A program made the position numbers and the translations under genes. DNA of 64,000 nucleotides from Candidatus Foliamicus sp. (GTDB lineage: Bacteria; Pseudomonadota; Gammaproteobacteria; Steroidobacterales; Foliamicaceae): positions 284,458-348,457 of the forward strand of contig OZ253475.1 in assembly GCA_965261845.1 (NCBI GenBank), in the 5' to 3' direction. Within the stretch, counting starts at the first letter, position 1. Every line of letters starts with the position of its first letter. The notes under the pieces are model-generated. The model had not been told where the DNA came from. It saw nothing but the letters and a program-made list of their open reading frames with translations, and did not search any database. Below, piece by piece: positions 12,364 to 52,244 of this stretch.

Positions 12364-12366
12364 ACT

Positions 12367-13266: not shown

Positions 13267-13310
13267 CCGCTTGATTTCTGGCAGGTGGCATTCTGAAACT
13301 GAAATGCGAC

Positions 13311-13931: not shown

Positions 13932-13940
13932 TTTGTCGTA

Positions 13941-36560: not shown

Positions 36561-38520
36561 CTAGGCTGAACTTCCAGAGTGTGCCGCATTGAACTCGTTG
36601 ATTTTCGGGACAAATCGAGAGATACGGTGTGTCGCTACTGGGAACGTTCGAGCCGCACGCCGAGCAGTTTGAAGGCTTCGCGCTGTAGCGCGGTGGGCCG
36701 GGTGAGGACCTCGAACGGCTCGGCGCCGGGCACTTGGGGGACGACGCGGTTCTTGGCGATCGTCGCCAGGTCGCCGAGCAGGGTGCGGAAGCTGTGCACC
36801 GGCAGACCGTTCGCGGTGCGTTTGCTGCGGGCTTTTTCCCTGGCCGCTTCGGAGACCTTCGCAGGCGCCACGACGGACGCGCGCGCCGCCTCGGCGGCGG
36901 CCGGATCGTCGTCGTCGAACAGCAGCGGCTTGAGCCGCTCGCGCAGGTGCCATTCCACGTAGTAGGCCAGCATGCACAGAAACACGTGCGCGCGCACCCG
37001 GTTCGCGGCGTGGTGGAAGACCGGTCGAACCTTCAGGTCCACGGTCTTGAGGCTTCGGAAGGCGCGCTCGACCGCGCTCAGGCGCTTGTAGGCGCGCACG
37101 GCGCCCTCGGCGTCGAGTTGCGTCTTCGCCAGGCTGGTGCGCACGACGTACAAGCCGTCCAGCACCGCCTCGGCGGCGATGGACTCAGGCTTTCGCCGAT
37201 AGCCGAACGCGTCGTCCTGGATATCCAGATCGAAGTGCTTGGCCATCTTGTATTGGCCGACGACCTTGCCCACCCGCACGCCGATCTTGTCCGCACCCTT
37301 CAGGCGCCACTTGTCGCGCCGCGTGGCCGCGACGATGGGATCGAGCAACGCCTCGGTGGCTTGGAGCAGTTCGTCTCGCTTGCGCGCCCGCGCCTCGGCC
37401 AGCAGCGGATTGCGGCACACCATGAGGCGCTCGCCCGGATAGGTATCGCTTCGGATCTCCACCAGGTCGGTCTCATCAAACAGCGAGAGCTGCACGGCGC
37501 CGGATTCCACCAGCGAGCGCACCGCCGGACCCCGCAACGCGCTAATCCAGTCCAGCCCCGCCGGCTTCACGTCCTCGCGAATGCGCGCCTCGGTCAACAT
37601 CCCGCGGTCGCCCACCAACACCACCCTGGAGAACCCGAAGCGGTGCCTGAGCTTGTCGACCTGCGCGCCCACGGTGGCCGGATCCGCGGTGTTGCCGGCG
37701 AACACCTCCACCGCCACCGGCCGGCCCTCGGCGTCGCACAACAGCCCGAACTCGATCTGCACCTTGCCGCGCCGCCCGTCGCGGGAATACCCGCGCTTGG
37801 CCAGCGGGCAGCGGCGCCCTTCCATGTGGACCGACGTCAGGTCGTAGAACACCAGGGCGCCGTCCTTGAGATGGCGCTTGGCCAAGCGCCGCTCGATGGC
37901 GTGCTGGCGCTCGATGAGCCAGTCCATGGCGGCGTAGAGGTCGTCCTCGTCGATCTCCCCAAGTGCCAGCGTCTCGGCGAGCGAGTCGCGCGCGGTCGCC
38001 TCGGCCAAGCCCCGGGCGGTGGCCAGTTTCGAGCCGGGGTCCAGGATTCGGGCGACGATCATCGCCAGCACGCGTCGGCGCTCGGGCGAGTCCGCACCGG
38101 CGATCGCGCGCTCCACTCGCAGCTTGCGCAACGTGCCGAGCACGGCGGCGACATGACCGTGGGGTTTGGAGCGCACGATGTCGAAGGCCTCCTCGCGCCC
38201 TACCAGGGGCTCGTTCCTCAGCACCCGCCGCAGGGCATCGATTTTCTGCGGGGGCCACTTGGTGAGGTTGGCCAAGGTGCGTTTCTTGACTTTGCCGTTT
38301 TCGCGCCAGCCCTCGCGCAAGAGAATAGCGGGAGGCGATTTGCGGTTGGGGACCTTTTCGATATACATGGGAACGATGATAGTTCATGAATCTCTACACT
38401 GCAATACTATCAGATCACTATACATGGGAATACATGCGCGGCACTCGAACACACTATTCCCCACCGAGTCAATCACTTAAATCAATCCGGACGGTTAAAT
38501 CGAGGGGAACTTCAGACTAG
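36561..38520 (-). mobile_element. IS1634-like (IS4 superfamily) insertion sequence, about 1.96 kb
   Basis: Imperfect terminal IRs CTAGGCTGAACTTCC (36561-36575) and GGAACTTCAGACTAG (38506-38520), 13/15 matching. Single 577-aa transposase gene. Confidence 0.75.
36635..38368 (-). CDS. IS1634-family DDE transposase
   Basis: MYIEKVPNRKSPPAILLREGWRENGKVKKRTLANLTKWP N-terminus, VVLVGDRGM block, and C-terminal AYKRLSAVERAFRSLKTVDLKVRPVFH (IS4-type Y..R..E..F..K motif). Confidence 0.85.
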   Translation of the reverse strand: MYIEKVPNRKSPPAILLREGWRENGKVKKRTLANLTKWPPQKIDALRRVLRNEPLVGREEAFDIVRSKPHGHVAAVLGTLRKLRVERAIAGADSPERRRVLAMIVARILDPGSKLATARGLAEATARDSLAETLALGEIDEDDLYAAMDWLIERQHAIERRLAKRHLKDGALVFYDLTSVHMEGRRCPLAKRGYSRDGRRGKVQIEFGLLCDAEGRPVAVEVFAGNTADPATVGAQVDKLRHRFGFSRVVLVGDRGMLTEARIREDVKPAGLDWISALRGPAVRSLVESGAVQLSLFDETDLVEIRSDTYPGERLMVCRNPLLAEARARKRDELLQATEALLDPIVAATRRDKWRLKGADKIGVRVGKVVGQYKMAKHFDLDIQDDAFGYRRKPESIAAEAVLDGLYVVRTSLAKTQLDAEGAVRAYKRLSAVERAFRSLKTVDLKVRPVFHHAANRVRAHVFLCMLAYYVEWHLRERLKPLLFDDDDPAAAEAARASVVAPAKVSEAAREKARSKRTANGLPVHSFRTLLGDLATIAKNRVVPQVPGAEPFEVLTRPTALQREAFKLLGVRLERSQ

Positions 38521-38716: not shown

Positions 38717-40798
38717 TCAAGAAAGTCGTCCGCTTAAGTCATCCAGGAATTCGGATGTGGGGTCAACACCAGTGACCAGCAGGTAGTCTCGCGCACGCGT
38801 GCAGGCCACGTAAAGCAAGTGGCGTTCAGTGTCGTAAACTTCCTGGAGATCCGCGTCGTCGGAGACGGATTCAATTCGTTCCTGGAGAGGTATCGTCTCA
38901 TCGTCGCAAGCCATGACTGCGACCGCTCTGAACTCCAGCCCTTTGACGAGATGCATCGTGCTTACGGACAACTGGCCGGCACTCTCCGCCAGCTGTTCGT
39001 CGAGCACTTTCCAGGGAAACCCAGACTGCTGAGCGGCGTCGGAGGCGCGGTCGACTTCCTTTTTTGAGCGCACAACAACGCAAGTCTCGTGGGGCGCGAC
39101 ACCGTCAGCTATTCGTTGTGCAATCCACGCACCGACTGCTTGGATCTCTTGCTCAATGCTCTCGAAAACGCGGATATCCGGTTTTGGACCATTGAACATC
39201 GACACCGTCCCACGGCGGCTTTCCACATTGCCGTCGACATCGGAGGTTTCCGGTTCCAACAGAAGATCGGCCTGCATCCTGATCTGGTGTGAAGTCCGAT
39301 AGTTGATCCGAAGCGTCTGCGAACGGCCTCGGACATCGACTCCGAGCGACTTCCAGGAGAATGGTGTCTGAAAAATGCGTTGCCCCAGGTCTCCCGCGAA
39401 GAAAAGAGCATTCGGCTGTTCGCTGCCTAGCGCTGCAAGGAACCGGAGTTGCGCGACACTGACATCCTGTGCTTCATCTACTATGGCGAAGTCGAATGGC
39501 GGGTTGCGGCGGGCCTGCATTTTCTCAGCAAGCACACTGAACATTTCTGATCGGGTTATCAATCCCCGCTCACGCAAGTGTCGCTTAACCTGCTCGAAGG
39601 ATTCCCACAACACCGCTCGGCGTTGTTCCGGAATTCCGGTCTTCCGACCCAACCGCTTGACGTTCCGATAGTCCTCCCATGACTGCAATTGCCAAGCGTC
39701 AACGACATGCTCCCATTCCCCAAGAAGAAATCGGGGGCTGAAACTCAACCCGTCACTTGCTTGAATTGCTTCGCTTAGCAATTCCTCAATGTGTTTTCTG
39801 GCGGCGATTTTTGGTCGCGCAACATGCGCTTCGTACAGACGCTGTCCAATCGTGTTTATCGCGTGAACCTCAAGGCGTTCAGCAAGGCGCGGTTCGTTGC
39901 CGATAAGCCGTCGCAACTTCTTTCTTAGCGCATTGGACAGCATGTCGGAAAACGTGGTCAGAAGCACTCGCGCATCCGGATTCTTCCGTGCCAAGTGGAC
40001 CGCGCGATGCAACGCAACTATCGTTTTCCCTGTGCCTGCTGAACCGGAGACCCGAGCCGAGCCTCCAAAGTCTTTCTCGACGACCGCGCGTTGTGCAGGA
40101 TGCAGAAAAACGGCCCACTTCTCCCAAGGGTAGTCCAAGGCTCGCGCCAACTCTTCGGAATCCGCCATAACGCGAAAGCGTCGCTGCGCGTCTGGATGCT
40201 CGAACGGGTCGGCGCCATCCACTGCTGCCGTTGGGATTCGTGGTTGTCCCCCAGTTGCCAGCTCCAGTAGCGCTTCAGCCGCCTCACTTGGAAGGTTTTC
40301 GGCCAGCACAAGCAACTCGTCTTCATCGGCCCTGCGCACGTCCTCCAGCCACTCGACTGGCACGCCAAAGCCGAGAAGTTCCTCCTCCGCCATATCCATG
40401 AACAGAGCGGGCTTAGCCGGCGTTGGGGCATCCCTGACCACGAATGCAGGGACCATGATCTCCTGAACGGTCTCACGTAATTCGACAAGCTGCGCAGCTC
40501 CGGTCTTGGGATGGGTCTTGAGTTTTCGCCGCTCCGCCCACTGATACGCTTTGTCGTGATGATCGACGTAACACAGCAACAGGCTGTTGACGCTGCGGTG
40601 AACGATGAGTCTGATGTCACGACTCACCCGTATCGACCAGAAGTTGGGATCTCGGACTCCGTCAAGCCTGTGAAATCGCATGCCCGGAGCGGCTGGATTT
40701 AGCTGCAGGTCAAATGCCTTTGTCTTTACGACCTTCTGCTCCCCGCCCGTCAATTTGGCGAGGCTGTTGGTAAACGTGTCGGCGATGCGGAAATGCAT
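38717..40798 (-). CDS. SF1 (UvrD/PcrA-like) helicase with a RelE/ParE-like N-terminal domain
   Basis: Helicase motifs GSAGTGKT (I), FAIVDEAQDVS (II), INYRTSHQI, TMHLVKGLEFRAVAV and LLYVACTRARD (VI). N-terminal ~110 aa: MHFRIADTFTNSLAKLTGGEQ...FWSIRVSRDIRLIVHRSVNSLLLCYVDHHDKAYQWAERR. ATG 40796-40798 shares one nt with the upstream TGA; TTG 40801 is the alternative start. Confidence 0.85.
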   Translation of the reverse strand: MHFRIADTFTNSLAKLTGGEQKVVKTKAFDLQLNPAAPGMRFHRLDGVRDPNFWSIRVSRDIRLIVHRSVNSLLLCYVDHHDKAYQWAERRKLKTHPKTGAAQLVELRETVQEIMVPAFVVRDAPTPAKPALFMDMAEEELLGFGVPVEWLEDVRRADEDELLVLAENLPSEAAEALLELATGGQPRIPTAAVDGADPFEHPDAQRRFRVMADSEELARALDYPWEKWAVFLHPAQRAVVEKDFGGSARVSGSAGTGKTIVALHRAVHLARKNPDARVLLTTFSDMLSNALRKKLRRLIGNEPRLAERLEVHAINTIGQRLYEAHVARPKIAARKHIEELLSEAIQASDGLSFSPRFLLGEWEHVVDAWQLQSWEDYRNVKRLGRKTGIPEQRRAVLWESFEQVKRHLRERGLITRSEMFSVLAEKMQARRNPPFDFAIVDEAQDVSVAQLRFLAALGSEQPNALFFAGDLGQRIFQTPFSWKSLGVDVRGRSQTLRINYRTSHQIRMQADLLLEPETSDVDGNVESRRGTVSMFNGPKPDIRVFESIEQEIQAVGAWIAQRIADGVAPHETCVVVRSKKEVDRASDAAQQSGFPWKVLDEQLAESAGQLSVSTMHLVKGLEFRAVAVMACDDETIPLQERIESVSDDADLQEVYDTERHLLYVACTRARDYLLVTGVDPTSEFLDDLSGRLS

Positions 40799-43317
40799 CA
40801 AGTCTGGATCGGGAGCAACCCTACGATCTTGCTGGCCACCGCCGAATAGAGGTCAACCTCCACTTCAGGTGCGCGGATTGATACCAAGAGAGCGTATCGT
40901 GCCACGCTATCGTATCGCTTCAGCTTTGTCCTCGACTTCCACCAGCCAAGCGCGGGCCAAATTCCGATGGCTCCCCGGCTTGCAAGTTCCGCTGCACTGC
41001 CCCGCCAGATATCGCTGTGTAAGGATCCCCTATGCCGATTCTGCGTTCCTATGACCCATCCGGCATCGTTTCCACTACTCCGCGTCCATTCTTCCGCGTC
41101 GCGCGCCGCTGCATTCAAACGTCCACGGAAGTCCGCCTCCGACTCCAATGGCCGCTTCACATCGAATCTCAAACCGTGCGATTCGTAACGATACCGGCGA
41201 GCAAATCCACGCGCGGACGGATTGGGTTCCACGAAATACGAAAGAGTCACCCGCATTTCTACCCGCGTCTCTCCGAGCGCTTCCAACTCATCAAGAGGCC
41301 AGGGCAATCGGTGCAGATTCATTTCCCGGAAAGTAGGTTGATTGCTCCCTTCACGTCTAAATGGATGCAACCGGTCCTCGCTTACCATGGTCAGAGAGTT
41401 ATCCACGCTCCACATGGCGCGGTCCAGATCGGGAATTCCGAATCCACAGCATCGCACGAGACGGGCCATATCCGATTTGTTAGGCGTTCGGTTTTCCGGC
41501 AGAAATGCCTCACGCATAGCATCGGTCCACTCTGCCGAGTGCACGATCAAGGCCCTAATGGTTTCGGGCCAGAGACGGGGATAGGCCACCATCAACTGCG
41601 CGGCCATCCGCGCGGCGAGTGCCGATGCCGCGCTGGTTGCGTTCGTGATTGTGAATAGCCTTTTCGTTGGCTCCCTATTCGTCGTCAGTAGGCTAAGGCT
41701 CGCCTTGGTTTCGGCATACGGGGTCGCATACAGATTTGTCTCGGCGGCATTGCCTCCTTCGAGGACGACATCCGGCTTTAGCGGCCAGTGCTTCTGCCAG
41801 GTTGCCGAGGTGGTGCTGAACGGGCTTAGGCCGCCAGCAGGTGCGACCGGCTGATAATTCTGTGCATCGGGCTCCGTAATCCGCACGAGTTGAGTCGCCG
41901 CGCCGACAGTCAGCGCGTTCCAGCTTTGACCCGGGTCATGAACCCCGTCGGAGCAATTGCTCTCCGGGTACTGCGTCCACGCATTTGGGTCCTGTACGTT
42001 TCCAGCAGAAATGACAAAGAGCCTCGGCGTATCCCCTTGTGTGTCTGAGTCGGCCGAGAGCCGGTCTATTGCCGCGGACCAGGCCGATGGCCGGCCACGA
42101 TCACGATTGTCGCGTGCAGTAACCGCCATGCTGAACACGCGGCGCCGTTGCGGTGCGGTAATTTCAGGCCGCGCGACTGCCTCGACAGTTAGGTAGCCAT
42201 GATGCTGTGCGTCTCCAGTGTTGGGGCTGCCATGAGTCAATAATTTCACTGATTCGAGTCGATGACGTATTTCGATCGGGTCTTGGGATTCGATTGCCTC
42301 TGTTAGGTTTCCGATCAGAGCAAGTCCAGCCATTTCCGTCCCGTGGCCGTCACTGTCATCGGTACCCCATCCTGGCTGCACTGAGTGCATGTCCGCACCG
42401 GCCAGTCCGGGGGTGATAAGCGGATGCCCTCGGTTGACACCGGTATCGAACAAGCACACGTGCGCCGCTTCCTCCTCCTCGCCGTGCACCGTCATCCGGC
42501 CCTGCAAGTCCTCAAGCCATTCTGCTTGTTCTTCGGGCGGTAACGCATCAAAGAACTCCGCCGTTTCTTTGGCGCGCCTCAACTCGGCAATACTGTTCAA
42601 TGTCAACATTGATTGCTTCATCTGACCTGCCGACCCATATGCCAGGAGGACGGTGCGTTCCGGGAACTGGAAATCCCCAGGTGCGAACGCTAAGTCCAGT
42701 CCATCAGCGAGTGCCCGGAACTGATTCGTGACGGCTGCACGATCACCCCGCACCGGTAGCCAGATTTCCCACCAAAAGGGTTCGTCGTCTGTTGTGGGGA
42801 ACTCCTCGGGCTCGTCCGTCCACAGAGCCTTCAGCGTAGCTGCCCGAATTTTGGAGATCGAGTTAAGTAGTTTGTGATTCTTGGGACCGAGTTTCGTGTC
42901 CTTTGATTCGTCCAAGTACGATCGGATGAGGTTCTCAAGAATATGCAACTTGCCGTCGGGAACGAACACTGTGGCGAGCGTCCGCGGCCCGTCGTGACGA
43001 ACATTCAGCAACTCGATTCCGGAGTGCTCCCGGGCGAGAGATTCGAAGGCCAGTTCGATTTCAGGAAAGCTTTCAAATTCAACACGTAGGCCGAAGCCCG
43101 CTTCAAGCCCGGCTGATTCTTGCTGCATCCGCGCAGTTGCCAATTGTGGACGCAATGTCTCGACCTGGCTCAGCAGCGCACTGCCATGCGGAATCCGATC
43201 CCTGTCTTGCAGCGAAACGCCGCCGCCAATTGCCCGCGGAGGACGGAGGAAGCGTTCCGTCTCGCCATTTCTCTCAAGAACAAAGTGCGGCTTGCGCCGA
43301 ACGTCCTGATCCGCCAT
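40798..43317 (-). CDS. ietS: S8-family (subtilisin-like) serine peptidase, IetS-like, 839 aa
   Basis: Catalytic-triad contexts CLFDTGVNRGHP (Asp), SDGHGTEMAGLA (His) and TNATSAASALAARMAA (Ser). About 280-aa non-catalytic N-terminal region. Lies directly after an AAA+ ATPase gene. Confidence 0.8.
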   Translation of the reverse strand: MADQDVRRKPHFVLERNGETERFLRPPRAIGGGVSLQDRDRIPHGSALLSQVETLRPQLATARMQQESAGLEAGFGLRVEFESFPEIELAFESLAREHSGIELLNVRHDGPRTLATVFVPDGKLHILENLIRSYLDESKDTKLGPKNHKLLNSISKIRAATLKALWTDEPEEFPTTDDEPFWWEIWLPVRGDRAAVTNQFRALADGLDLAFAPGDFQFPERTVLLAYGSAGQMKQSMLTLNSIAELRRAKETAEFFDALPPEEQAEWLEDLQGRMTVHGEEEEAAHVCLFDTGVNRGHPLITPGLAGADMHSVQPGWGTDDSDGHGTEMAGLALIGNLTEAIESQDPIEIRHRLESVKLLTHGSPNTGDAQHHGYLTVEAVARPEITAPQRRRVFSMAVTARDNRDRGRPSAWSAAIDRLSADSDTQGDTPRLFVISAGNVQDPNAWTQYPESNCSDGVHDPGQSWNALTVGAATQLVRITEPDAQNYQPVAPAGGLSPFSTTSATWQKHWPLKPDVVLEGGNAAETNLYATPYAETKASLSLLTTNREPTKRLFTITNATSAASALAARMAAQLMVAYPRLWPETIRALIVHSAEWTDAMREAFLPENRTPNKSDMARLVRCCGFGIPDLDRAMWSVDNSLTMVSEDRLHPFRREGSNQPTFREMNLHRLPWPLDELEALGETRVEMRVTLSYFVEPNPSARGFARRYRYESHGLRFDVKRPLESEADFRGRLNAAARDAEEWTRSSGNDAGWVIGTQNRHRGSLHSDIWRGSAAELASRGAIGIWPALGWWKSRTKLKRYDSVARYALLVSIRAPEVEVDLYSAVASKIVGLLPIQT

Positions 43318-43338
43318 GTAACGCCTGCAGTTCCTTTG

Positions 43339-44343
43339 CTACTCGTTTTTTGTCCTGAGTCGGCTGGAAATGTCTAGTCTTTCCCGTAGCGTATGGCGAA
43401 TTTCGTCCTCCGAAACCTTGTTCCGCCCTTCTATGAGTGCCTCTTTCAGAGCTTCATCCGACGCTCTGGCCACTTCGGCATAACTCAACCCCGCCCCCCC
43501 CTTGGCCAGCCGCTGCCAGGACACGCCTTTCGCGGCCATCCGTGCCAAGCGGGACTTCAATACCGATGCAATCCGTTCCTCATTTGGCAACTCGTAATGA
43601 AGCACATCGTCGAATCGGCGGAACAACGCATGGTCCAGGATATCCGGGTGATTGGTAGCCGCGACAATCAGGCTGTGGGATCCGTCCTGTTCAATCATTT
43701 GCAAGAAGCTGTTCAGGATACGCCGGACCTCCCCGACGTCGTTAGCAAGCCCGCGGTGTGAACCGATCGCATCAAACTCGTCGAAGAAATAGACTCCACG
43801 CGTTTTTTCGGTCGCTTCGAATACCTGCCGCAATTTGGCCGCGGTCTCGCCCATGTACTTCGTAATCAACCCGTCAAGCCGCACCTGTAGCAGCGGCATG
43901 CCAAGCTCGCCGGCGAGTACGGATGCCGTCATCGTCTTGCCGGTGCCCGGCGGCCCCATCAGCAGCAGCTTTCGCCTCGGAGAGAGTCCATGCGCCAATA
44001 TCTCTGACGCCCTTCGCTGTTCCCGGATAATCCGCTTGAGTTGGCCCAACAAGACGTCGTCCAGAACCATATCCGCAAGCCGTGCCTTTGCGTACGCGAC
44101 GTTAAGCAGCCCCGCCAACTCTCCTCGTGGGCGGCTGATGGGAATCGGCTTCTCGCCGCGTTTTGATAGTAGTCCCCGGCGCACCTTTGCTTGGTCGATC
44201 AGCGCCCTCAACTCCACCGCGAGCTTGCCATGACCCAGTTTCGCCTCGTGCGCGGCGACCTGCATAGCCACGGAGAAAAACCGCTCGTCGTTATCTTCAA
44301 GGTGGGACTTGAGCAACGCTTTCAATTGAGCGGCACTAGCCAT
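43339..44343 (-). CDS. ietA: AAA+ ATPase (CDC48/FtsH-type module), IetA-like, 334 aa
   Basis: Walker A LLLMGPPGTGKT, Walker B VYFFDEFDAIG, sensor/Arg-finger region ATNHPDILDHALFRRFD. Confidence 0.85.
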   Translation of the reverse strand: MASAAQLKALLKSHLEDNDERFFSVAMQVAAHEAKLGHGKLAVELRALIDQAKVRRGLLSKRGEKPIPISRPRGELAGLLNVAYAKARLADMVLDDVLLGQLKRIIREQRRASEILAHGLSPRRKLLLMGPPGTGKTMTASVLAGELGMPLLQVRLDGLITKYMGETAAKLRQVFEATEKTRGVYFFDEFDAIGSHRGLANDVGEVRRILNSFLQMIEQDGSHSLIVAATNHPDILDHALFRRFDDVLHYELPNEERIASVLKSRLARMAAKGVSWQRLAKGGAGLSYAEVARASDEALKEALIEGRNKVSEDEIRHTLRERLDISSRLRTKNE

Positions 44344-44546: not shown

Positions 44547-44574
44547 AGAGGTCGGGCCTATTAGGCTTTCTATA

Positions 44575-45267
44575 TCAGGCTTGCGTGCATTCCAGGCGTT
44601 TGAGCCAGCCTCGAAAGTTGAGACATTCAGAACGGATTCTGTCGAACCCGATTTCCAGCGCCGCCACATTGCCCATCAACGGCTTCTGGTAGTCGGGAAC
44701 GAGTTCCAAGATACGACGGGATGGCGCTGTGGCGGGAGAATCGTCTATTTCCTCTGGAGTGGCGAATTGATCTCGAATCTCCTGGAACCGCGGCGCAAGT
44801 TGAGGACGACCGATTGCTTCCCCGAATCGTTCACAATCGCTGAAGAGCATGGCCTCAAACTCATGCATCATGACGTAGGGTATGAAGCGCCTGTCGTCGA
44901 AGCCGGCACCCATCGTCCGCCGGATATCCGCCGCGAGCTCGTCCTCAATCGTCTTCGCCTTACGCGGAAAGGCCAGCCCGGCTGCCTGAGACCGGCCCGG
45001 CCAGGCTCTTGAACCCGCCTTCGGCATCCCGTAATAGTCAACCATTGTGGTTGCAATGCATTCCTGATCTTCCCGCAAGTGAGCCACGATGTCATTTCGA
45101 GCGGCGCTCCATGGCTTGATTCCGCCACGGCGGGAGCGTTGACGGGCGTTACCGATCAAGCGCGCGCCAACACGGGTCATACCAAACCTGTAAAGATGTG
45201 GGGCGAGCGCCTCATTGACGAAAGTCTCCTCGGTTTGGCCCTCAACGTGAACGAGGAGCCGGGTCAT
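44575..45267 (-). CDS. DUF4276-family protein (Toprim-like N-terminus)
   Basis: MTRLLVHVEGQTEETFVNE start and 230 aa, the pattern I recall for DUF4276. 4-nt overlap (ATGA) with the upstream ATPase gene. Confidence 0.8.
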   Translation of the reverse strand: MTRLLVHVEGQTEETFVNEALAPHLYRFGMTRVGARLIGNARQRSRRGGIKPWSAARNDIVAHLREDQECIATTMVDYYGMPKAGSRAWPGRSQAAGLAFPRKAKTIEDELAADIRRTMGAGFDDRRFIPYVMMHEFEAMLFSDCERFGEAIGRPQLAPRFQEIRDQFATPEEIDDSPATAPSRRILELVPDYQKPLMGNVAALEIGFDRIRSECLNFRGWLKRLECTQA

Positions 45268-46364
45268 CGCGCGGAATCTGGGCCTTTGTTCTCCTCCGCC
45301 GGACGGCCGCCAAACTCATTCTTCTCCCAGAGCTGGCCGAGACTGTAATCTTCCAGCCACGCCGAGAGTTTCTCGCCGTCCAGCCTGCGAAGCGTTGTAG
45401 CGCCCTTTACGCGATCAGCCACAAGTACGTCTTCCGGTTCGAAGTGATCCAGTAACAAGGATGACTGTGTCGCTAGGATGATTTGCGAGGTGTGGGATGC
45501 TTGTTTGAGCAGCGACGCCAACAGAGTGATGGCGTACGGATGCAGGCCAAGCTCGGGTTCGTCTAAAAGTATGACGGAGGGCCGATGCGATTCAGGTTGG
45601 AGCAAGAGGGTAGCGAGAGAGATAAACCGGAGAGAACCATCCGATAGTGACGAGGCATTGAAATAGGCGTTCGACCCCCGATGACGCCATTCGAAGAGAA
45701 TCTTTTCCTCGTTCAACTCCAGCGGCTGAAGGACAAAGTCGTCGAAGAATGGCGCGGCCAGCCGCACGGTTTGTCGAATTTGAGTGTACGCGTTCCGGTG
45801 CTTTTTGCTTAGCAGAAACAGGAAGGCGGCGAGATTCGAACCGTCTGCGCGCAACTGACGATTGTCTTGCAGGTCAGCCGTCTTTTTCATCGGGGATGCC
45901 GCGCCAGCGTCGTGAAAATGGAAAGACCGCCAGCAACTCACTTCGCTTTGCACGAACTCAACTTCAGGTCCAAGTCCAAGGCTTTCTTCCAAGTCACTGA
46001 CAAAATCCTGGGGGATATTGATTTGAAATATCTCAAACCCGGCATTCAACTGGTCGTCAACTCCGTATGGCATTCCGACCCTGAAGTCAGCTGATCCATC
46101 CTTAAAGCTGACCACGAACCCAATCTTTGGCGTTACCTTTGATCCAAAGTGAAGCAAGCGGTCCGCTCCGCCGGATCGGGCAACAAGATCGGACAGCTCG
46201 GACCCGCTAAGCACGGCTGAGCGCAACAGCTTGAGCGCGCCAAGGAAGTTTGATTTGCCCGATCCGTTGGCGCCGATCAGGACGTTGATGGCACGCAATT
46301 GCAACTGTTCGATTGCGGCGATGCTCCTGTAGCCCCAAATCGAAATTTCGCGTATCGCGGCCAT
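45264..46364 (-). CDS. ABC/SMC-type (AAA_21/23-like) ATPase, 366 aa
   Basis: Walker A LIGANGSGKSN, signature-like SSLSDGSLRF, Walker B VILLDEPELGLHP. No nuclease domain in the same chain. Confidence 0.85.
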   Translation of the reverse strand: MAAIREISIWGYRSIAAIEQLQLRAINVLIGANGSGKSNFLGALKLLRSAVLSGSELSDLVARSGGADRLLHFGSKVTPKIGFVVSFKDGSADFRVGMPYGVDDQLNAGFEIFQINIPQDFVSDLEESLGLGPEVEFVQSEVSCWRSFHFHDAGAASPMKKTADLQDNRQLRADGSNLAAFLFLLSKKHRNAYTQIRQTVRLAAPFFDDFVLQPLELNEEKILFEWRHRGSNAYFNASSLSDGSLRFISLATLLLQPESHRPSVILLDEPELGLHPYAITLLASLLKQASHTSQIILATQSSLLLDHFEPEDVLVADRVKGATTLRRLDGEKLSAWLEDYSLGQLWEKNEFGGRPAEENKGPDSAR

Positions 46365-46373
46365 GACCTTTTA

Positions 46374-49136
46374 CTAAACCCGAAATACCTTGATGACCTC
46401 GTCGCCCAGGTGGTTGATGACCTTGACGGCGATACGGCCTGTCTCGGGTTTCGGGAATGGGCGCGAGGTGTCACTATGGAGTGTAGCCCAAGCGTCCCGG
46501 TTGATTTCAGCCTTCAATGTGGTCTTCAGCGCCTTATAGGGATCGTTTGCGCCGAGGAAATAGGCATGGCGCACGAAGAAGCTCTCTTCGTTGTAGTCGG
46601 TGTCGATGAACCAGCAGGCGATCCCATCCGGTCCGTCGGAGCGGACTTCGCCGGTTTGCGGATGAAAGACATCCACGCCGTTGACCTTGACCTGGATCTG
46701 ATCGTCCTCCGCGTTCAGAATCTCAATATCGGGTTCACCGAAGATCACGAACAGGTTGCCCTTGCCGGTATTCTTCAGCTCGGCGGCCATATGCAGATCG
46801 GCGTTCATACGCGCCTTGAGAACGGGAATTCGTCCCAGCTTATCGAACTCCGAGGAGTGCGCGTCATAGCTGAAAGCACAAGCGATAAGCACATCGAAAT
46901 CCGCGTCTCCGGCTTCGCGAGCTGCCTTGACCAGATCCGGCCGAGAAACAGTGCCGAACTCTGGACCAATGAAAATAGCGCCACGCCTTTCGGGATCGCT
47001 GCCGCTTTCCAAATAGCGGCCCTCTGCGCAGATAAGATCGCCCGGCCAAGGCTTCACAGACGTAAAGGTAATCTTGTCTTCCTTGTGGGCTTGCTGAACA
47101 CCTGCGGAAGCAAGGTTCTCAAGAACGACCTCGGCGAAATCGGCTTGACCGGCATAATCCCCGCGCGCATCGGCAACGCCTCCGATCAACTCATCGTTCT
47201 CGTCAACACCCAGTTCACGGTGTGGCGAAAGGCTCTCTACGGTGAACGGCCCGGCGACTCGCACCTTTTTGCGGTCCCCGTACGGCTTGTCGTACAGATA
47301 TTCGTAGTTTGCCTTGGCGGCGATGGAAGCGTCGAATTCCTTTTGCCGGGCGATGCGCTGTTCCCACCAATTCGCGTGAATTCTTCTGCTCTCCTCGGGC
47401 CATGCTTCGTCGGCGTCGCGGGGGATTTCCCATTCCTCGTAGGATGTGCCGAGCGCAGCGTTCAATTCCTGACACAGCGGTTCCAGCGTTTCTTGGAACT
47501 TCTCCCAAATTACGTCGATCTCGGCGTTGTGGGCGATGGACTTGAGGGTGATGTGGGGGACGCGCTCGTACACGAAGCCTTGGCGGATGTCGTTGTACGT
47601 GGGCGTTTCAGAGGCGGCTTTGCGGGTGAGCGCGGCTTCCTTGATTTGGCCGTCGCGGCTGTCGGCGAGCAGATAGTAGGGATAGCGTGCGCCCATGATG
47701 CGAGCGCGGGCCAGCGCGAGTGCGACGCGGGAGGTGTCGATGGTGATCCAGCGGCGGCCCCACTGCTCGGCAACGTACGCGGTCGTGCCGGAGCCGCAGG
47801 TAGGGTCGAGGACGAGGTCACCAGGGTCGGTGGTCATTAGGATGCAGCGTTGGATGACGCTGATAGCAGTCTGGACAACGTAGACTTTTGAGTCACCGAA
47901 CCCAGATTGCCGTGTGTCATTCCATACGTCCGCGTGTGCTTGAAATCCGAAGTCAGAAAAAGGTCTGACAAAACCCAAAGTTAGCCCAGAGAAGGTCAAC
48001 CTCTGCGCTTTGCGGAGCCTTTCCATCCCTACGAGATTAGTTTTCCACCCCCCCTTCCCAGGTCGAAACTTCTTCCCATCAAGATCATACTCAAAGAGAG
48101 TCGTTGAGCTTGCAGACTGAGATGTGATCGGATTCATGCGAGCGATGCGGTAAGGTGTATCGCCCGCTGGTGCCAAGAAACCATCCTCGGCAAAGTCAAA
48201 CCGGAAATTGTTGTCCTGGTCTACCTCTCTCTCAAAAAGGGGACGACGAAATTTGAGGTCGTTCAACGATTTTGCGAACCATAGGACAAAATCACGAGTG
48301 CTATCCAACGCCGCCGATGCTTTACCTGTCGTAGTTCTGTAGACAATCTCACTGACAAAATTCTCTTCCCCAAACACCTCGTCCATCAACGCCCGCACAC
48401 GATGTACATTCTCGTCCCCGATTTGCACGAGAACTGAACCACTTTCGGTCAACAAATCCCTCGCTACGGTCAGCCTATCCCGCAAGTACGTCAAATACGA
48501 ATGAATCCCATCGCGCCAAGTATCTCGAAACGCCTTTACCTGCTCCGGCTCTCGCGTGATGTGATCGGCCTTGCCATCCTTGACGTTGCGGCTGCTCGTT
48601 GACCATTGGAAGTTGGAGTTGAACTTGATGCCGTAGGGCGGGTCGATGTAGATGCACTGCACCTTGTCTCGCAGCCCTTCCCGCTCCGCGAGCGATGCCA
48701 TCACCTGCAGGCTATCCCCGAGAATCATGCGGTTCGACCAGTTCGCATCGTGCTGATAAAACTCGGTCTTGGCGTTGTCATCAGGCAGCCCATTGAAATC
48801 TGCAAATAGATCAACCTGCGGTTCACTAGACTGCTGCTCCGCGTGACTGCGGCGAAGCAGGTCGTCGATCAGCGCCTTGGGATGGACTTTTTCCTGGATA
48901 TAGAGCGGTGGCGCGTGAGCTACAAGGTCTGACCAGTCCTGCTTATCCTTCCCGCGCCACACAAGCTGCGGATCGAGGTCCCGGTTACGGCGCTCGTAGG
49001 CGACGCGCACCGGGGATTGCTCCTCCTTGCGCAACACTGACTCGTATTCCGCCGTCGGGATATTCTTCCGCGTCGATTCCTGATGAGTCAGCACTTCGAT
49101 TGACTTGCGTTTCGGTTTGCTGGGTCTTCTTGCCAT
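46374..49136 (-). CDS. mod: DNA methyltransferase (beta-class N6A/N4C, Type III Mod-like) with long C-terminal extension, 920 aa
   Basis: Motif IV IYIDPPYG precedes motif I LDPTCGSGTTAYVA (beta-class order). About 300 extra C-terminal residues ending KVINHLGDEVIKVFRV. Confidence 0.85.
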   Translation of the reverse strand: MARRPSKPKRKSIEVLTHQESTRKNIPTAEYESVLRKEEQSPVRVAYERRNRDLDPQLVWRGKDKQDWSDLVAHAPPLYIQEKVHPKALIDDLLRRSHAEQQSSEPQVDLFADFNGLPDDNAKTEFYQHDANWSNRMILGDSLQVMASLAEREGLRDKVQCIYIDPPYGIKFNSNFQWSTSSRNVKDGKADHITREPEQVKAFRDTWRDGIHSYLTYLRDRLTVARDLLTESGSVLVQIGDENVHRVRALMDEVFGEENFVSEIVYRTTTGKASAALDSTRDFVLWFAKSLNDLKFRRPLFEREVDQDNNFRFDFAEDGFLAPAGDTPYRIARMNPITSQSASSTTLFEYDLDGKKFRPGKGGWKTNLVGMERLRKAQRLTFSGLTLGFVRPFSDFGFQAHADVWNDTRQSGFGDSKVYVVQTAISVIQRCILMTTDPGDLVLDPTCGSGTTAYVAEQWGRRWITIDTSRVALALARARIMGARYPYYLLADSRDGQIKEAALTRKAASETPTYNDIRQGFVYERVPHITLKSIAHNAEIDVIWEKFQETLEPLCQELNAALGTSYEEWEIPRDADEAWPEESRRIHANWWEQRIARQKEFDASIAAKANYEYLYDKPYGDRKKVRVAGPFTVESLSPHRELGVDENDELIGGVADARGDYAGQADFAEVVLENLASAGVQQAHKEDKITFTSVKPWPGDLICAEGRYLESGSDPERRGAIFIGPEFGTVSRPDLVKAAREAGDADFDVLIACAFSYDAHSSEFDKLGRIPVLKARMNADLHMAAELKNTGKGNLFVIFGEPDIEILNAEDDQIQVKVNGVDVFHPQTGEVRSDGPDGIACWFIDTDYNEESFFVRHAYFLGANDPYKALKTTLKAEINRDAWATLHSDTSRPFPKPETGRIAVKVINHLGDEVIKVFRV

Positions 49137-49157
49137 TGGTTGGTACCGTGCTTGCGG

Positions 49158-52100
49158 CTATGCCGTTACCGAATCGATCATTGCGTTGAAGTGTTCTTCC
49201 ACCTTCGCTTCGAAGTCGGATTGCATCGCCCACGCGTCCGTGAACTCTGCGAACGCCCAGCGCCCGTAACGCTCGTGGTTGTTCACGCCAGGAACCCAGT
49301 ATGTCTCCATGGTGTTTTTCTTGTCCTTGGCGTCCTCCCGCCGGTACCCCTTGATCTCGACAATCAGGTGCAAAGGATCATTATGGCCATGGCCGTCATC
49401 GACGAGGACGACGAAGTCCGGGATGTAGGTACGCGTCTCGGAGCCATACCGGTAGGGCGCCTCAAGCCCCAGATTGTGGTTCTTCACGTATGCGAGCACT
49501 CGGGGATGAGCTTCTGCGACTCGGCAGAATTCAGCTTCCCAGCCGCTGTCCAGAACTACCCAGTTGACGTGGCAACGCCGTGCGTCGGTTTCGTATCTGT
49601 TTGTTTTGGTGGTATTGAAATTTACGTGCGCTGTCGAACCCACTGGGTTGTACGGATCAAGCACCGCTTTCACCGGGCGGCTGCCGATCTCGGCGCGGGT
49701 GATGGCCGCCGTAATCCGTTCGCAGGCCATGTCCGCCAGTTCCTGGTACATGAGTTGCGCAGGGTAGGCGCCGCCCTTGCAGACGAGGCAGTTGTCCAGC
49801 CATTGCTTTGTGATGCGCTTGAGTTGGCCGAATAGATGCAGCTTGGGTTCCTCGCCCGGATCGCGCCATTTCGTGTAGAGCAGACGGTGGGTGACGTGAA
49901 ACAGAAGCGTCGAGCGCCGCATATCCTGAAGATGTTCCAGGCTGAGGTCCACATCTTCGCCAATTATCCCGGCATTCTTTGTGATGGAGGGGCCGATTAG
50001 GTCAGGCGTCAACTCAAGCACTGAATCATCGGTGAATTCGGCAGTGAGTCGTTCTTCCGGAAGCTCGACGCGATAACCGGCCACGCGCGGAAACCGGATT
50101 TCCAGCGCGTCCCGGTCCGGCCTCACCGCCCTGACGTGAATGGTCTCCCGGGGCGGCTGCGGCGGCGCCACAACCGGCTTCGCCGTGAAATCGAAGGGGA
50201 TCCCCAGCACATCCGCGTACTCGACGCTGAACAATCCCTCGTGCGGGCCGTCCTCGTTCAGATCGTAGGACTGCCGCCTGAGCGCGCGGCCCACGACCTG
50301 CTCGCAGAGTAATTGGGTGCCGAAGGCGCGGACGCCCAGAACATGGGTGACGGTATTCGCATCCCAACCCTCGGTCAGCATGGAAACGGACACGACGCAG
50401 CGGATTGAACCGCCCAATCGCCCTGGTTTTCCGACCGTGTTCATAACCTCGCGCAGCAAATCCTGATCGGTGATCTTTTCGGCTTGGCCCCGATCGCCGG
50501 TGCGCTCCACGATTTCGCGGCGGAATCGCTCGATCTCATCTGCCGCCATTTTCCGGAAATTCCTGTCCAACGCATCCCCTGACTCCAGTTGCTCACTATC
50601 GATCAGCAGCGTGCGCGGACGAGCCAGCTGGTTGCCGTGCTCGTCGAAATTGCGGAACAGCGGCAAGCGGCCATTCTCCAGGGTGGTCGTGCCGTCGTCG
50701 TTCTCGCGGTGAAAGCCCGAAATGAAGTCGTAAACGAGCTTGGATGTCGATGTGTTGTTGCACACGATGATGAAACATGGCGGCACGCTGATGTGTGCCT
50801 TTTCCCAGAGTTCAAAGGTCTGTTTGTAATGCCCGTACAGCGCCTCAAGGGCGGTTTGCAGTTCTACCGGCAGGCTGAGCGGATCGAGTGTCTTGGCCTT
50901 TCCGCGTCCTTTTTTCGGCATGCGGGTTCGAATGTGCTGCCACAGGTTGCGGAACCTGGGCATTTCCCCATCCGGGATGTTGTCCGCGACGGGGACACGC
51001 GGCAGTTTGACGATGCCGCACTCGATGGCGTCCATGAGAGAGAAATCGCTCATCGTCCAAGGGAACAGCGTGCCCTCGGCATAGCCGGAACCGCTAAGGA
51101 AAAATGGTGTGGCGGAAAGATCAATGACGCTGGAAAGCCCAAGTGTTCGATTCACCGCCTCAAGACCGGAAATCCAAAGCCGCGCTGCCTCCTTGTTTTT
51201 CTCGGCTTCTTTCTTGTCGTCACCTTTCAGAACGGCTTCCTGGTCTTCTCCCGGTTTCTCGCGGTAGCAATGATGCGCTTCATCGTTGATCGCCAGAATG
51301 TGCTTCATGCCCATCAGGCCAGGCATTACCCGTTGCAGCATCTGTCCCTCGGTTTCGACCGTATTGAGGGCTGCGCCCCGTCCCTGGAGCAGCGACCGGC
51401 CGCCCTTTGAGAGGACAATTCGGTCGCGGAGCTTGAAGGCGTGGTAGTTCGTGATGACGATCTTCGCGCGCTCAAGATCAGAGAGCATATCCGCCGGCGC
51501 CAGCTGCCGGCTCTGGTAGTAGCTGTCCGGATCATTAGGCTGTAGCACGCGCAGCCGGTCACGAATGGTCAGACCCGGTGCGACAACGAGAAATCCGCGC
51601 GTGAAACGCTTGCTTTGCGGGTGACGGACGGCATTCATCGTCTGCCAGGCAATCAGCATTGCCATTACAGTAGTCTTGCCCGCGCCCGTCGCGAGTTTGA
51701 GCGCCATGCGCATCAGTTGGGGATTGGCATTGCTGCTGGCGTTTGCCAGATGCTCCAGGAGCCCTTTTTCCGCCTTTCCTCCGCGCGGCGCTACCTCGGC
51801 GAGCCAGATGGCGGTTTCTACTGCTTCGATCTGGCAGAAGAAGGGACGAATCCCGCTGAATTTGTGGTGTCTCCAGTGCTGAAGAAGACGCGCCGTTTCA
51901 GGAGTCACGCGCCACTGATTGGGGTTCGGTAGCCGTCGCCAGCGGTCCACCTCCTGGCGAACGCCGTTGATGATGGCAGTGTGATCGTATTGCTGTGCCT
52001 CTGTCGAGAGCCCTTTGCCCTCATCGAACACCAGCGCAGCCTGCTTGGAGGATCCCTTTTGCTGCCTCGGTTTCGGTATCGGGGTGATGAACTCCGCGAG

Positions 52101-52217
52101 CCGGCGCGATTCAATGGTTCTTTGGGTGGGCTGACCGGTTGCATCCAGCTCCCAGTGGCGAGAGGGGTACTCGTATGGAGAATTCAGTATTGGCCCTTCA
52201 AAGAACCGATCCCCCAT
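49158..52217 (-). CDS. res: Type III restriction enzyme Res-like helicase-nuclease, about 1,019 aa
   Basis: Motif I LATGAGKTTVMAML, DEAH box AINDEAHHC, C-terminal PD-(D/E)XK-like IPDFVVL...LIVEIKG. ATG 52217 is preceded by AAGAGGAAG; GTG 52220 is the alternative start. Confidence 0.85.
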   Translation of the reverse strand: MGDRFFEGPILNSPYEYPSRHWELDATGQPTQRTIESRRLAEFITPIPKPRQQKGSSKQAALVFDEGKGLSTEAQQYDHTAIINGVRQEVDRWRRLPNPNQWRVTPETARLLQHWRHHKFSGIRPFFCQIEAVETAIWLAEVAPRGGKAEKGLLEHLANASSNANPQLMRMALKLATGAGKTTVMAMLIAWQTMNAVRHPQSKRFTRGFLVVAPGLTIRDRLRVLQPNDPDSYYQSRQLAPADMLSDLERAKIVITNYHAFKLRDRIVLSKGGRSLLQGRGAALNTVETEGQMLQRVMPGLMGMKHILAINDEAHHCYREKPGEDQEAVLKGDDKKEAEKNKEAARLWISGLEAVNRTLGLSSVIDLSATPFFLSGSGYAEGTLFPWTMSDFSLMDAIECGIVKLPRVPVADNIPDGEMPRFRNLWQHIRTRMPKKGRGKAKTLDPLSLPVELQTALEALYGHYKQTFELWEKAHISVPPCFIIVCNNTSTSKLVYDFISGFHRENDDGTTTLENGRLPLFRNFDEHGNQLARPRTLLIDSEQLESGDALDRNFRKMAADEIERFRREIVERTGDRGQAEKITDQDLLREVMNTVGKPGRLGGSIRCVVSVSMLTEGWDANTVTHVLGVRAFGTQLLCEQVVGRALRRQSYDLNEDGPHEGLFSVEYADVLGIPFDFTAKPVVAPPQPPRETIHVRAVRPDRDALEIRFPRVAGYRVELPEERLTAEFTDDSVLELTPDLIGPSITKNAGIIGEDVDLSLEHLQDMRRSTLLFHVTHRLLYTKWRDPGEEPKLHLFGQLKRITKQWLDNCLVCKGGAYPAQLMYQELADMACERITAAITRAEIGSRPVKAVLDPYNPVGSTAHVNFNTTKTNRYETDARRCHVNWVVLDSGWEAEFCRVAEAHPRVLAYVKNHNLGLEAPYRYGSETRTYIPDFVVLVDDGHGHNDPLHLIVEIKGYRREDAKDKKNTMETYWVPGVNNHERYGRWAFAEFTDAWAMQSDFEAKVEEHFNAMIDSVTA

Positions 52218-52244
52218 CACTCACTTCCTCTTAACCCGCTCTGA

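Follow-up and report, generated by a model that had tools for sequence, protein, structure and literature searches.

The closest described relative of the gene pair considered here is HEC-01, which is catalogued in PADLOC as 'Hma-embedded candidate 01' (Payne et al. 2024, bioRxiv 10.1101/2024.01.29.577857). That report described HEC-01 as an ABC ATPase together with a TOPRIM protein and noted a metal site in common with BpOLD. One representative assayed in E. coli protected against none of the phages tested, and many of the candidates in the same report were not enriched near defence systems. In a second study, E. coli B carrying a HEC-01 representative was protected from one or more of the phages T7, T5 and T4. 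Related architectures have been drawn together elsewhere. The PARIS paper added MADS3-4 to the ABC-ATPase/TOPRIM systems and grouped them with PARIS and OLD, while the Menshen paper described DUF4276 as a new Toprim member, assigned RloB to Toprim together with DUF4276, and reported RloB to be part of Type I R-M systems. Genetic analysis of MADS has established that both mad3 and mad4 are required for defence.

The pair analysed here is located in a 64,000-nucleotide stretch of DNA from Candidatus Foliamicus sp. (referred to as the window), where it is flanked on the same strand by the following features, given in the order of transcription.

49158..52220, minus strand: Res-like subunit with a ResIII helicase and a C-terminal RE_endonuc domain (Pfam; no PADLOC match)
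46374..49136, minus strand: Mod, a 920-aa N6/N4 DNA methyltransferase (PADLOC MTase_III PDLC03632, 1391 bits; Pfam N6_N4_Mtase)
45264..46364, minus strand: HEC-01A, a 366-aa ABC-type (AAA_21/AAA_15) ATPase (open reading frame list, ATG start; Pfam and PADLOC)
45264..45267, minus strand: ATGA stop/start overlap, translational coupling (the plus strand reads 'tcat')
44575..45267, minus strand: HEC-01B, a 230-aa DUF4276 protein, putative Toprim-like nuclease effector (open reading frame list, ATG start; Pfam and PADLOC)
43339..44343, minus strand: IetA (PADLOC, 4.6e-73; Pfam AAA / Peptidase_S8 for IetA and IetS)
40798..43317, minus strand: IetS (PADLOC, 7.9e-39; Pfam as for IetA)
38717..40801, minus strand: UvrD-like helicase closing the host operon (Pfam UvrD-helicase and UvrD_C; PADLOC GajB-like)
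36635..38368, minus strand: IS transposase (DDE_Tnp_1) at the island edge (Pfam)

The ATPase stop and the DUF4276 start share four nucleotides (ATGA on the coding strand). The two overlapping genes and the motifs quoted in the preliminary description were all recovered from the open reading frame list, the 'tcat' at 45264-45267 and the translations. In the ATPase these motifs are GANGSGKSN (residues 31-39), LSDGSLRF (240-247) and ILLDEPELGLHP (265-276), and in the DUF4276 protein LLVHVEGQTEETFV occupies residues 4-17. Judged from its sequence, the pair is an ordinary new instance of the catalogued candidate anti-phage system HEC-01. Family membership follows because both proteins match the HEC-01A and HEC-01B models over their full length, and the A model, the B model and adjacency on the same strand, by which HEC-01 is recognized, are all found here. 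The profile searches proposed at the outset matched AAA_21, DUF4276, HEC-01A and HEC-01B, with no DUF4435. The pair had been thought to lie outside the named systems; this claim of novelty falls away with the PADLOC name. The family is large, with approximately 3,300 clusters at 50% identity distributed over many phyla.

The match of the ATPase to Pfam AAA_21 (E 1.6e-30, residues 26-306) is far beyond chance, and AAA_21 is the only Pfam domain within its 366 residues, in agreement with the earlier statement that it carries no nuclease domain. Its match to the PADLOC HEC-01A model PDLC04175 (E 2.6e-122, 406 bits) covers residues 3-355 of the protein and positions 5-362 of the 363-position profile. 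Models of better-known relatives scored far lower. The AriA model PDLC02980 reached 4.8e-29 with its best stretch restricted to residues 165-306, far below the HEC-01A match; the AbiLi model reached 1.5e-22 in PADLOC, weak beside the same match; and the PADLOC Old and GajA models gave partial, weak matches of 67 and 58 bits. The NCBIfam MAD3 equivalog NF047739 scored 109 bits against a cut-off of 420. An AF2 model of the ATPase (pLDDT 78) consists entirely of an ABC head, matching the SMC head 4i99 at 3.6e-15 as well as Rad50 and PtuA. Walker A (G31-K37-S38), the signature (S239/S241/G243/R246) and Walker B (D268-E269) are invariant, demonstrating an ABC fold with an intact nucleotide-binding site. 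The H-loop histidine is replaced by an invariant glutamine in the motif T299-Q300-S301, and because of this replacement the hydrolysis kinetics of the enzyme may differ from those of OLD and PARIS.

The smaller protein belongs to DUF4276 far beyond chance (Pfam E 6.4e-49, residues 8-226 of 230) and matches the PADLOC HEC-01B model PDLC04188 over residues 1-227 (E 1.1e-70, 236 bits). Its other PADLOC matches were confined to HEC-01B models and a weak DrmD model, with no MADS model among them, and neither PADLOC nor Pfam returned an AriB or DUF4435 match. Conserved acidic residues, which the preliminary description had proposed to look for, are present: E9, G10, E13, E136, E138 and E172 are invariant among homologs of 37-60% identity, and D77 and H135 are conserved in at least 90% of the same homologs. 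In the AF2 model (pLDDT 82) a beta1-alpha-beta2-alpha-beta3-alpha-beta4 core precedes a helical C-terminal part, a secondary-structure order compatible with a four-stranded alpha/beta core. E9 is positioned at the C-terminal end of strand 2-8 with E13 at +4, and the spacing of this VEGxxE motif is identical to that of Toprim motif 1 in BpOLD, XccOLD, P2 Old and YbjD. D77 ends strand 70-77 (strand 3), where OLD has DxD. The second aspartate of the Toprim DxD is absent (D77-Y78-Y79). The carboxylates lost with it might come from the invariant E136-x-E138 after strand 4, which belongs to a fully or almost invariant H135-E136-x-E138 (HExE) motif.

Direct comparisons of the DUF4276 protein with known Toprim domains gave no significant match. 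Foldseek searches of PDB and BFVD with the AF2 model returned nothing at E <= 0.001; generic Rossmann-like folds were the top matches, and the top 50 contained no OLD, Toprim or AriB structure, so that the anticipated structural agreement with OLD Toprim domains did not emerge from these two databases. Alignment by hhalign with P2 Old, YbjD and an OLD Toprim alignment gave probabilities of only 1.1%, 2.4% and 5.5%, the last profile comprising only six sequences; a scan of viral_contigs with P2 Old for a deeper OLD profile yielded only nine close relatives. Searches of PDB sequences with phmmer and hmmsearch found nothing relevant to DUF4276. A Pfam scan of 30 diverse DUF4276 members at E <= 10 produced no significant match to the OLD-like_TOPRIM families, with one sub-threshold OLD-like_TOPRIM_1 match (E 0.07) and one OLD-like_TOPRIM match (E 0.26). 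The sequence-profile tests amount to sub-threshold hints only, at motif 1. Because the fold and profile tests performed here fell below significance, the Toprim assignment rests on the literature and on motif resemblance, and we regard the DUF4276 protein as a probable Toprim-like metal-dependent nuclease. The original proposal of a split, PARIS-like ATPase/Toprim system with DUF4276 in place of DUF4435 is accordingly upheld in part: three published sources and the conserved VEGxxE/D/HExE residues speak for it, while our own fold and profile comparisons did not reach significance.

To place the pair in a wider context, 80 related loci were fetched, of which 78 were complete; the remaining two end at contig ends. 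Both genes, with the ATPase directly upstream of DUF4276, were present in 78/78 complete loci, a strict co-inheritance that bears out the expected co-occurrence, and the distance from ATPase stop to DUF4276 start was between -8 and +20 nt in 74 of the 78. Most of these loci have no RM or UvrD-like neighbour. In a syntenic Ca. Foliamicus relative (L001) the pair stands by itself, with dsbB on one side and a cytochrome c gene on the other; at this syntenic site dN/dS amounts to 0.26 (ATPase) and 0.16 (DUF4276), compared with 0.18 for the flanking iorB. The pair is under purifying selection. It also occurs alone on the small, mobilizable 10,958-bp plasmid pTR11_2, where its neighbours are VapBC and a resistance gene, and it adjoins trfA on a Piscirickettsia plasmid; its chromosomal neighbours include many housekeeping genes. 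The pair is able to outlast its host RM operon under purifying selection and travels alone on small plasmids.

In the window the pair sits within a defence island, as had been stated: Res and Mod lie upstream and IetA, IetS and the UvrD-like helicase downstream, all on the same strand. The gap between the Mod stop and the ATPase start is 9 nt, the start of the UvrD-like helicase overlaps the IetS stop, and synteny with Ca. Foliamicus is picked up again at window position 36441. The N-terminal 230 aa of the UvrD-like helicase gave a weak HigB/RelE match (E 0.0012). A promoter and terminator scan of 36-53 kb returned counts at or below shuffled expectation and carries no information on operon boundaries. 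Res homologs head the same operon in L002, L026, L044 and L096-L100, and the order Res-Mod-ATPase-DUF4276-UvrD is repeated in L002 and L026. When loci were looked up by helicase homolog, without bias towards the pair, UvrD-like homologs followed Res-Mod-[cargo] in 7/7 cases and the slot between Mod and UvrD was filled in all seven. Slot cargo elsewhere consists of SIR2_2, IetAS or large AAA_21 proteins / ABC ATPases, including a 1,260-aa SIR2 protein and an ABC ATPase of about 930 aa, and L099 and L100 have identical flanks with different slot cargo. In the window, the variable slot of the Type III-like Res-Mod-[slot]-UvrD-like operon carries two cargo modules, the HEC-01 pair and IetAS. Approximately seven loci place the pair with a Type III-like Mod, and 7 to 8 of about 76 loci have it flanked by a Type I specificity gene upstream and by hsdR downstream.

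We consider it reasonably probable that this HEC-01 member is a self-contained two-gene anti-phage or anti-MGE module, in which an OLD/PARIS-type ABC ATPase is translationally coupled to the probable Toprim-like nuclease, and that it is carried as cargo in the slot of an RM operon. By analogy with PARIS, AbiL and OLD, an ATPase oligomer would keep the nuclease inactive and act as the infection sensor. An interface between the two proteins might involve the invariant C-terminal tail WL..YSLGxLWxKNExGGRP. The trigger would be a phage-derived factor; an anti-restriction protein is plausible, since the pair turns up repeatedly inside RM operons. Such a trigger would lead to ATP-dependent release or activation of the nuclease, which would then cut tRNA or DNA and abort the infection. 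This scheme draws purely on analogy for its trigger, its substrate and its abortive outcome.

The setting of the pair in the window invites the alternative that it is not autonomous but works as a built-in effector or regulator of the methylation-based system around it, as Mad3/Mad4 do in MADS, with Res-Mod-ATPase-DUF4276-(IetAS)-UvrD forming one machine. The 9-nt spacing to Mod on the same strand, the recurrence of the gene order in L002 and L026, and a slot that was never empty in the seven helicase look-ups would all agree with such a machine, as would the absence of defence in one study when HEC-01 was cloned alone and the MADS genetics, where mad3 and mad4 are each needed and mad5 is deletable only together with mad2 or mad3. 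We nevertheless judge it unlikely, given that most related loci lack an RM or UvrD-like neighbour, that the pair is maintained alone under purifying selection in Ca. Foliamicus and occurs alone on small plasmids, that Res possesses an endonuclease domain of its own, that unrelated effectors take its place in the slot elsewhere, and that MAD3 scored far under its cut-off with no other MADS model matching in the neighbours. Another arrangement can also be envisaged. Since the slot was filled in 7/7 look-ups and differs in cargo between the identical flanks of L099 and L100, the Res-Mod-[slot]-UvrD-like operon, whose UvrD-like protein has a RelE-like N-terminus, may be an undescribed modular host system whose slot effector is functionally wired to the restriction module, HEC-01 being one plug-in effector; this extension is speculative and rather doubtful. 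Wiring of this kind might, for example, make the slot effector a second line that fires upon blocked restriction.

A partnership with restriction could instead take the form of a guard, as with PrrC and EcoprrI, whereby the pair would lie latent on the RM complex and fire once a phage anti-restriction protein disables it. Its recurrent embedding between Type I specificity genes and hsdR or beside a Type III-like Mod points in this direction; anti-restriction factors trigger PARIS and PrrC (quoted in Payne et al. 2024), and in MADS the specificity subunit can be lost without lethality only when the methylase or the ATPase is deleted as well. A guard dependent on a cognate RM partner would not be expected to persist alone, as this pair does, and proteins of 60-84% identity occur beside Type I, Type III-like or no RM, which argues against a specific protein-protein lock and leaves this analogy improbable in our estimation. 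We consider it very unlikely that the pair is not primarily anti-phage but a hitch-hiker in mobile islands, either a module for addiction or plasmid competition or an ATPase/nuclease of DNA-repair type. VapBC and a resistance gene beside the pair on a small mobilizable plasmid, trfA on the Piscirickettsia plasmid, the many housekeeping chromosomal neighbours, the frequent lack of defence enrichment among the candidates of Payne et al. and the negative HEC-01 phage assay are consistent with such a role. They are outweighed by the positive phage assay of one representative, the action of the homologous Mad3/4 in defence, an embedding in RM operons far above expectation for random genes, and the fact that the closest characterised relatives (AriA, AbiLi, Old and GajA) are all defence proteins.

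Several known systems have features in common with this pair and differ from it in others. The ATPase shares the AAA_15/21-group ABC type with OLD and Gabija (P2 Old, GajA/GajB), and the DUF4276 protein has the Toprim motif-1 VEGxxE in common with P2 Old, YbjD, BpOLD and XccOLD, although DxD is reduced here to D-x-Y and ATPase and nuclease are separate proteins rather than the one fused polypeptide of OLD and GajA. A UvrD-like helicase is present in the operon, as GajB is with GajA. A split Gabija (ATPase, Toprim and UvrD) was rejected, since the UvrD-like gene accompanies Res-Mod and also cargo unrelated to the pair, and most HEC-01 loci lack it. PD-T4-4 was likewise rejected as a named equivalent, its nuclease being PD-(D/E)xK according to the papers and not DUF4276. 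PARIS has the split ABC ATPase/Toprim-like architecture in common, and the proposed logic of a sensor and a released nuclease is the same; its nuclease AriB is however DUF4435 instead of DUF4276, and the 366-aa ATPase is much smaller than AriA (55 kDa). AbiL (AbiLi ATPase with the RloB-type Toprim AbiLii) and rloA/rloB also pair an ATPase with a small Toprim-superfamily protein, the Pfam family of the latter being RloB (PF13707) in AbiL and DUF4276 (PF14103) here.

In MADS of P. aeruginosa SMC4386, the gene for an AAA_21-type ATPase (Mad3) likewise precedes that for a DUF4276 protein (Mad4) beside a methyltransferase; MADS does not include Res, IetAS or the UvrD-like gene. MAD6-8 are mandatory in the MADS detection model. 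The PADLOC scan of the neighbours matched MTase_III, IetA, IetS and a GajB-like helicase, and neither mad6, mad7 or mad8 nor any other MADS model figured among the matches listed; membership of MADS was rejected on this ground and on the sub-cut-off MAD3 score. HEC-01 has the same two-gene layout of an ABC ATPase (A) and a DUF4276/TOPRIM-like protein (B), both inside a methylase-containing defence operon. Its Hma host carries an m5C methyltransferase, and the host here is a Type III-like Res with an N6/N4 Mod and a UvrD-like helicase; Hma itself, comprising the m5C methyltransferase HmaB, the helicase HmaA and the ATPase HmaC, was rejected as the host given that Mod is N6_N4_Mtase/MTase_III. 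The locus requires no new category, its PADLOC label would be HEC-01, and its value lies in the context that it provides for an under-characterised family. If the mechanism of HEC-01 were solved, a large family would be added to the ABC-ATPase/Toprim paradigm known from OLD, Gabija, PARIS and AbiL.

Analysis of the window confirmed most of what the preliminary description had reported for a two-gene module. Both open reading frames and their ATGA overlap were found, the overlap reading 'tcat' on the plus strand at 45264-45267, where the ATPase stop overlaps the start of the DUF4276 gene. All of the sequence motifs quoted for the two proteins are present in their translations. The features of the pair are as follows:

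45264-46364, minus strand: ATPase gene, 366 aa, Pfam AAA_21
44575-45267, minus strand: DUF4276 gene, 230 aa, Pfam DUF4276
45297-45359, minus strand: ATPase C-terminal tail, residues 336-356, WL..YSLGxLWxKNExGGRP

As described, the ATPase lacks a nuclease domain by Pfam, which assigned AAA_21 to residues 26-306 (1.6e-30) with weaker AAA_15, SMC_N and DUF2813 matches, and its partner carries a DUF4276 domain (6.4e-49). The two reading frames were confirmed not to be a chance pair. System assignment with the PADLOC-DB v2 models gave full-length matches of the ATPase to HEC-01A (PDLC04175; 2.6e-122, 406 bits) and of the DUF4276 protein to HEC-01B (PDLC04188; 1.1e-70, 236 bits), establishing family membership. 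The AriA, AbiLi, mad3, Old and GajA models produced partial and far weaker matches, and the sole NCBIfam match, MAD3, was below threshold (109 bits vs a cut-off of 420).

The ATPase belongs to a large family (at least 7,998 candidates at E <= 1e-5). Comparison of 33 homologs (58-79% identity) demonstrated an intact ABC nucleotide-binding site, with invariant Walker A (G31..G36-K37-S38), ABC signature (S239, S241, G243, R246) and Walker B/D-loop residues (D268-E269-P-E-L-G-L-H-P). The usual H-loop site is an equally invariant T299-Q300-S301, with Gln instead of the canonical His. The AF2 model (pLDDT 78, pTM 0.79) resembles ABC heads with high confidence, including the SMC head 4i99 (3.6e-15), Rad50 and PtuA of retron/Septu complexes. 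These results confirmed an ABC-type ATPase, while only the HMM matches point to a specifically OLD-like placement. The C-terminal tail is also invariant in the homologs (W336-L337..L342-G343-x-L345-W346-x-K348-N349-E350-x-G352-G353-R354) and is modeled with low confidence (pLDDT < 50 at residues 345-347 and 350-366); the tail may serve to dock the DUF4276 partner or to support oligomerisation.

The DUF4276 family comprises 4,356 clusters at 90% identity and 3,301 at 50% identity (E <= 1e-3). No fusions were seen, and no member exceeded 270 aa among the best 150 of the 3,301 clusters. In an alignment of 30 members (37-60% identity), E9, G10, E13, F16, G49, P90, E136, E138, E172, P182, K195, C215, F218 and W221 are invariant, and D77 and H135 are at least 90% conserved. 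The small protein thus has an invariant acidic cluster. In the AF2 model (pLDDT 82, pTM 0.79), strands at 2-8, 30-37, 70-77 and 128-133 alternate with helices and are followed by a helical C-terminal part. E9 and E13 lie directly after strand 1 within a VEGxxE motif that matches, in sequence and spacing, those of BpOLD (IFVEGDAE), XccOLD (ILVEGDAE), P2 Old (LLVEGKTE) and E. coli YbjD (LLVEGETE), and an H135-E136-x-E138 motif comes after strand 4. OLD proteins carry DxD after strand 3, whereas D77 of the DUF4276 protein ends strand 3 but reads D-Y-Y.

These motifs and this topology are compatible with a Toprim fold. The expected likeness to OLD Toprim structures did not appear, as Foldseek returned no match to the model at E <= 0.001 in PDB or BFVD, and a profile search against PDB sequences found nothing relevant. 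Alignment by hhalign gave probabilities of 1.1% with P2 Old, 2.4% with YbjD (though covering motif 1) and 5.5% with a small OLD Toprim alignment, and Pfam OLD-like TOPRIM families gave matches, both sub-threshold, in only 2 of the 30 members (E 0.07 and 0.26). The proposal of a split ATPase/Toprim system is partly supported: its architecture agrees with the literature, while five tests of our own gave no significant Toprim link. The assignment rests on published work: HEC-01B was reported to resemble TOPRIM proteins in structure and to share a metal-binding site with BpOLD (Payne et al. 2024), and the Menshen paper counted DUF4276 and RloB as new additions to Toprim.

One genome per species was scanned, giving 524 relatives, of which the best 80 loci (59-84% identity) were retained; they derive from Gammaproteobacteria, Acidobacteriota, Poribacteria, Chloroflexota, Planctomycetota, Verrucomicrobiota, Latescibacterota and others. 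Co-occurrence was strict, the ATPase lying directly upstream of DUF4276 in all 78 loci uncut by a contig end, and translational coupling is evident from the -8 to +20 nt between ATPase stop and DUF4276 start in 74 of these 78. Neighbours are heterogeneous. At loci with a Type I specificity subunit upstream (7 loci) or HsdR downstream (8), the pair lies inside Type I RM; a homolog of the window Mod lies upstream in about 7 and AriA-like ATPases nearby in 3. Outside these cases the neighbours are mostly housekeeping genes.

In the window, the pair occupies a variable slot of a Type III-like operon, and the surrounding island includes:

38717-52220, minus strand: operon Res - N6/N4 Mod - [variable slot] - UvrD-like, also seen at loci L002 and L092-L100
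40798-44343: IetA (AAA+)/IetS (S8 subtilase) defence pair, directly downstream of the HEC-01 pair
40112-40801: first 230 aa of the UvrD-like protein, with a weak HigB/RelE-like toxin match (E 0.0012, below the Pfam cut-off)
36635-38368: IS-type DDE_Tnp_1 transposase at the island edge

Res combines ResIII with a weak RE_endonuc match, and Mod is an N6_N4_Mtase (PADLOC MTase_III, 1391 bits). Hma was rejected as the host of the window pair, since Hma has an m5C methyltransferase. Res, Mod and the UvrD-like helicase recur together in other genomes, and seven helicase homologs looked up regardless of DUF4276 all showed the Res-...-[cargo]-UvrD layout, with Mod called in six (none at L094/L095). 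The cargo was a 1,260-aa SIR2_2 protein at L092/L093 and L100, IetA and IetS at L097 and L098, a 924-937-aa AAA_15/21 protein at L096 and L099, and AAA_21 with a short DUF4276 at L095; L099 and L100 have identical flanks and different cargo. In the window, the slot carries both HEC-01 and IetAS as cargo. Res and Mod are at times separated by Fic or small toxin-antitoxin genes. IetS and the UvrD-like gene overlap, stop on start, at 40798-40801, a junction shared with L097 and L098. Several UvrD-like homologs are named 'mRNA-degrading endonuclease RelE ... / superfamily I helicase' by JGI, and the protein may combine a RelE-fold nuclease with an SF1 helicase. Because no empty slot was found in this small sample of seven, functional coupling of cargo to host operon could be considered, and we regard it as unlikely.

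The best-matching relative, the Ca. Foliamicus locus L001, is syntenic with the window (71-80% nucleotide identity) and shares the gene order pepA-valS-iorA-iorB-dsbB. There the pair directly follows dsbB and precedes a cytochrome c gene, while the window has an additional Res-Mod block (52220-46368) and an additional IetA-IetS-UvrD-IS block (about 44560-36441), synteny picking up again at 36441. On the left, the break coincides exactly with start codons, which bound the Res-Mod block (window 52215-52247 and 46362-46373; L001 8875-8906). The ribosome-binding region 5' of the L001 ATPase (AAGGAAGTAAGTAATG) corresponds to that 5' of the window Res (GAGGAAGTGAGTGATG), and a similar string precedes Res in the unrelated contig L097. 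Together these observations suggest, short of proof, a deletion from start codon to start codon in which Foliamicus lost Res-Mod and kept the pair expressed. The dN/dS values between window and L001 were 0.26 for the ATPase, 0.16 for DUF4276 and 0.18 for the flanking iorB. Plasmids also carry the pair alone. On pTR11_2, a mobilizable plasmid of Acinetobacter (10,958 bp), it lies at 4883-6639, adjoining VapBC and tet(39), and this shows the module moving in the absence of an RM system; a Piscirickettsia plasmid is a second example.

Elsewhere in the window, a type I-C CRISPR-Cas locus (7572-14981) comprises Cas3 (7572-9872), Csd1/Cas8c (10561-12363) and more cas-sized ORFs, and a mini-array at 15461-15562 consists of just two 35-nt repeats (…GTCGCCCTCCGTGCGGGGGCGTGGATTGAAAC) with a single spacer. 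Two giant plus-strand genes encode proteins of 2,299 aa (167-7066; fn3, LRR, cadherin, Calx-beta) and 3,038 aa (18779-27895; He_PIG, Calx-beta), which we take to be eukaryote-like repeat proteins, a type reported from host-associated bacteria; long antisense ORFs inside both had no Pfam matches and are probably spurious. A DUF4238 gene (3.9e-29; 30536-31402) lies in a low-GC patch (0.51 vs about 0.65 in the flanks) and may likewise have been acquired horizontally.

By analogy with PARIS, AbiL, OLD and PrrC, an ATPase oligomer would sequester the nuclease and sense infection, a trigger would free or activate the nuclease in an ATP-dependent manner, and the nuclease would then degrade tRNA or DNA, aborting infection. 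The recurrent RM embedding and the MADS genetics make an anti-restriction protein a possible trigger. That same embedding fits two rival readings which remain, namely that the pair is an integral accessory of a methylation system, as in MADS, where defence needs mad3 and mad4 individually and Mad4 is a DUF4276 homolog (Menshen paper), or that it is a PrrC-like guard physically dependent on its RM partner. Against both, the pair is present and conserved without RM neighbours, and the strict pairing, mixed neighbours, lone L001 pair, dN/dS values and plasmid copies together argue for a self-contained module. A non-defence or addiction role is a third and unlikely rival, with which the mostly housekeeping neighbours sit easily.

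Comparison with known systems removes the novelty claimed for the pair, since PADLOC already lists HEC-01 and the split-system proposal is essentially the published view. The definition of HEC-01 pairs an ABC ATPase with a TOPRIM protein, and the system was found embedded in Hma systems (Payne et al. 2024, bioRxiv 10.1101/2024.01.29.577857). The representative in that study gave no protection against any phage tried; a representative in a later cold-seep study was reported to protect E. coli B from one or more of T7, T5 and T4. The window pair is an instance of HEC-01, a system catalogued before, and its embedded context, though of interest, is known in concept.
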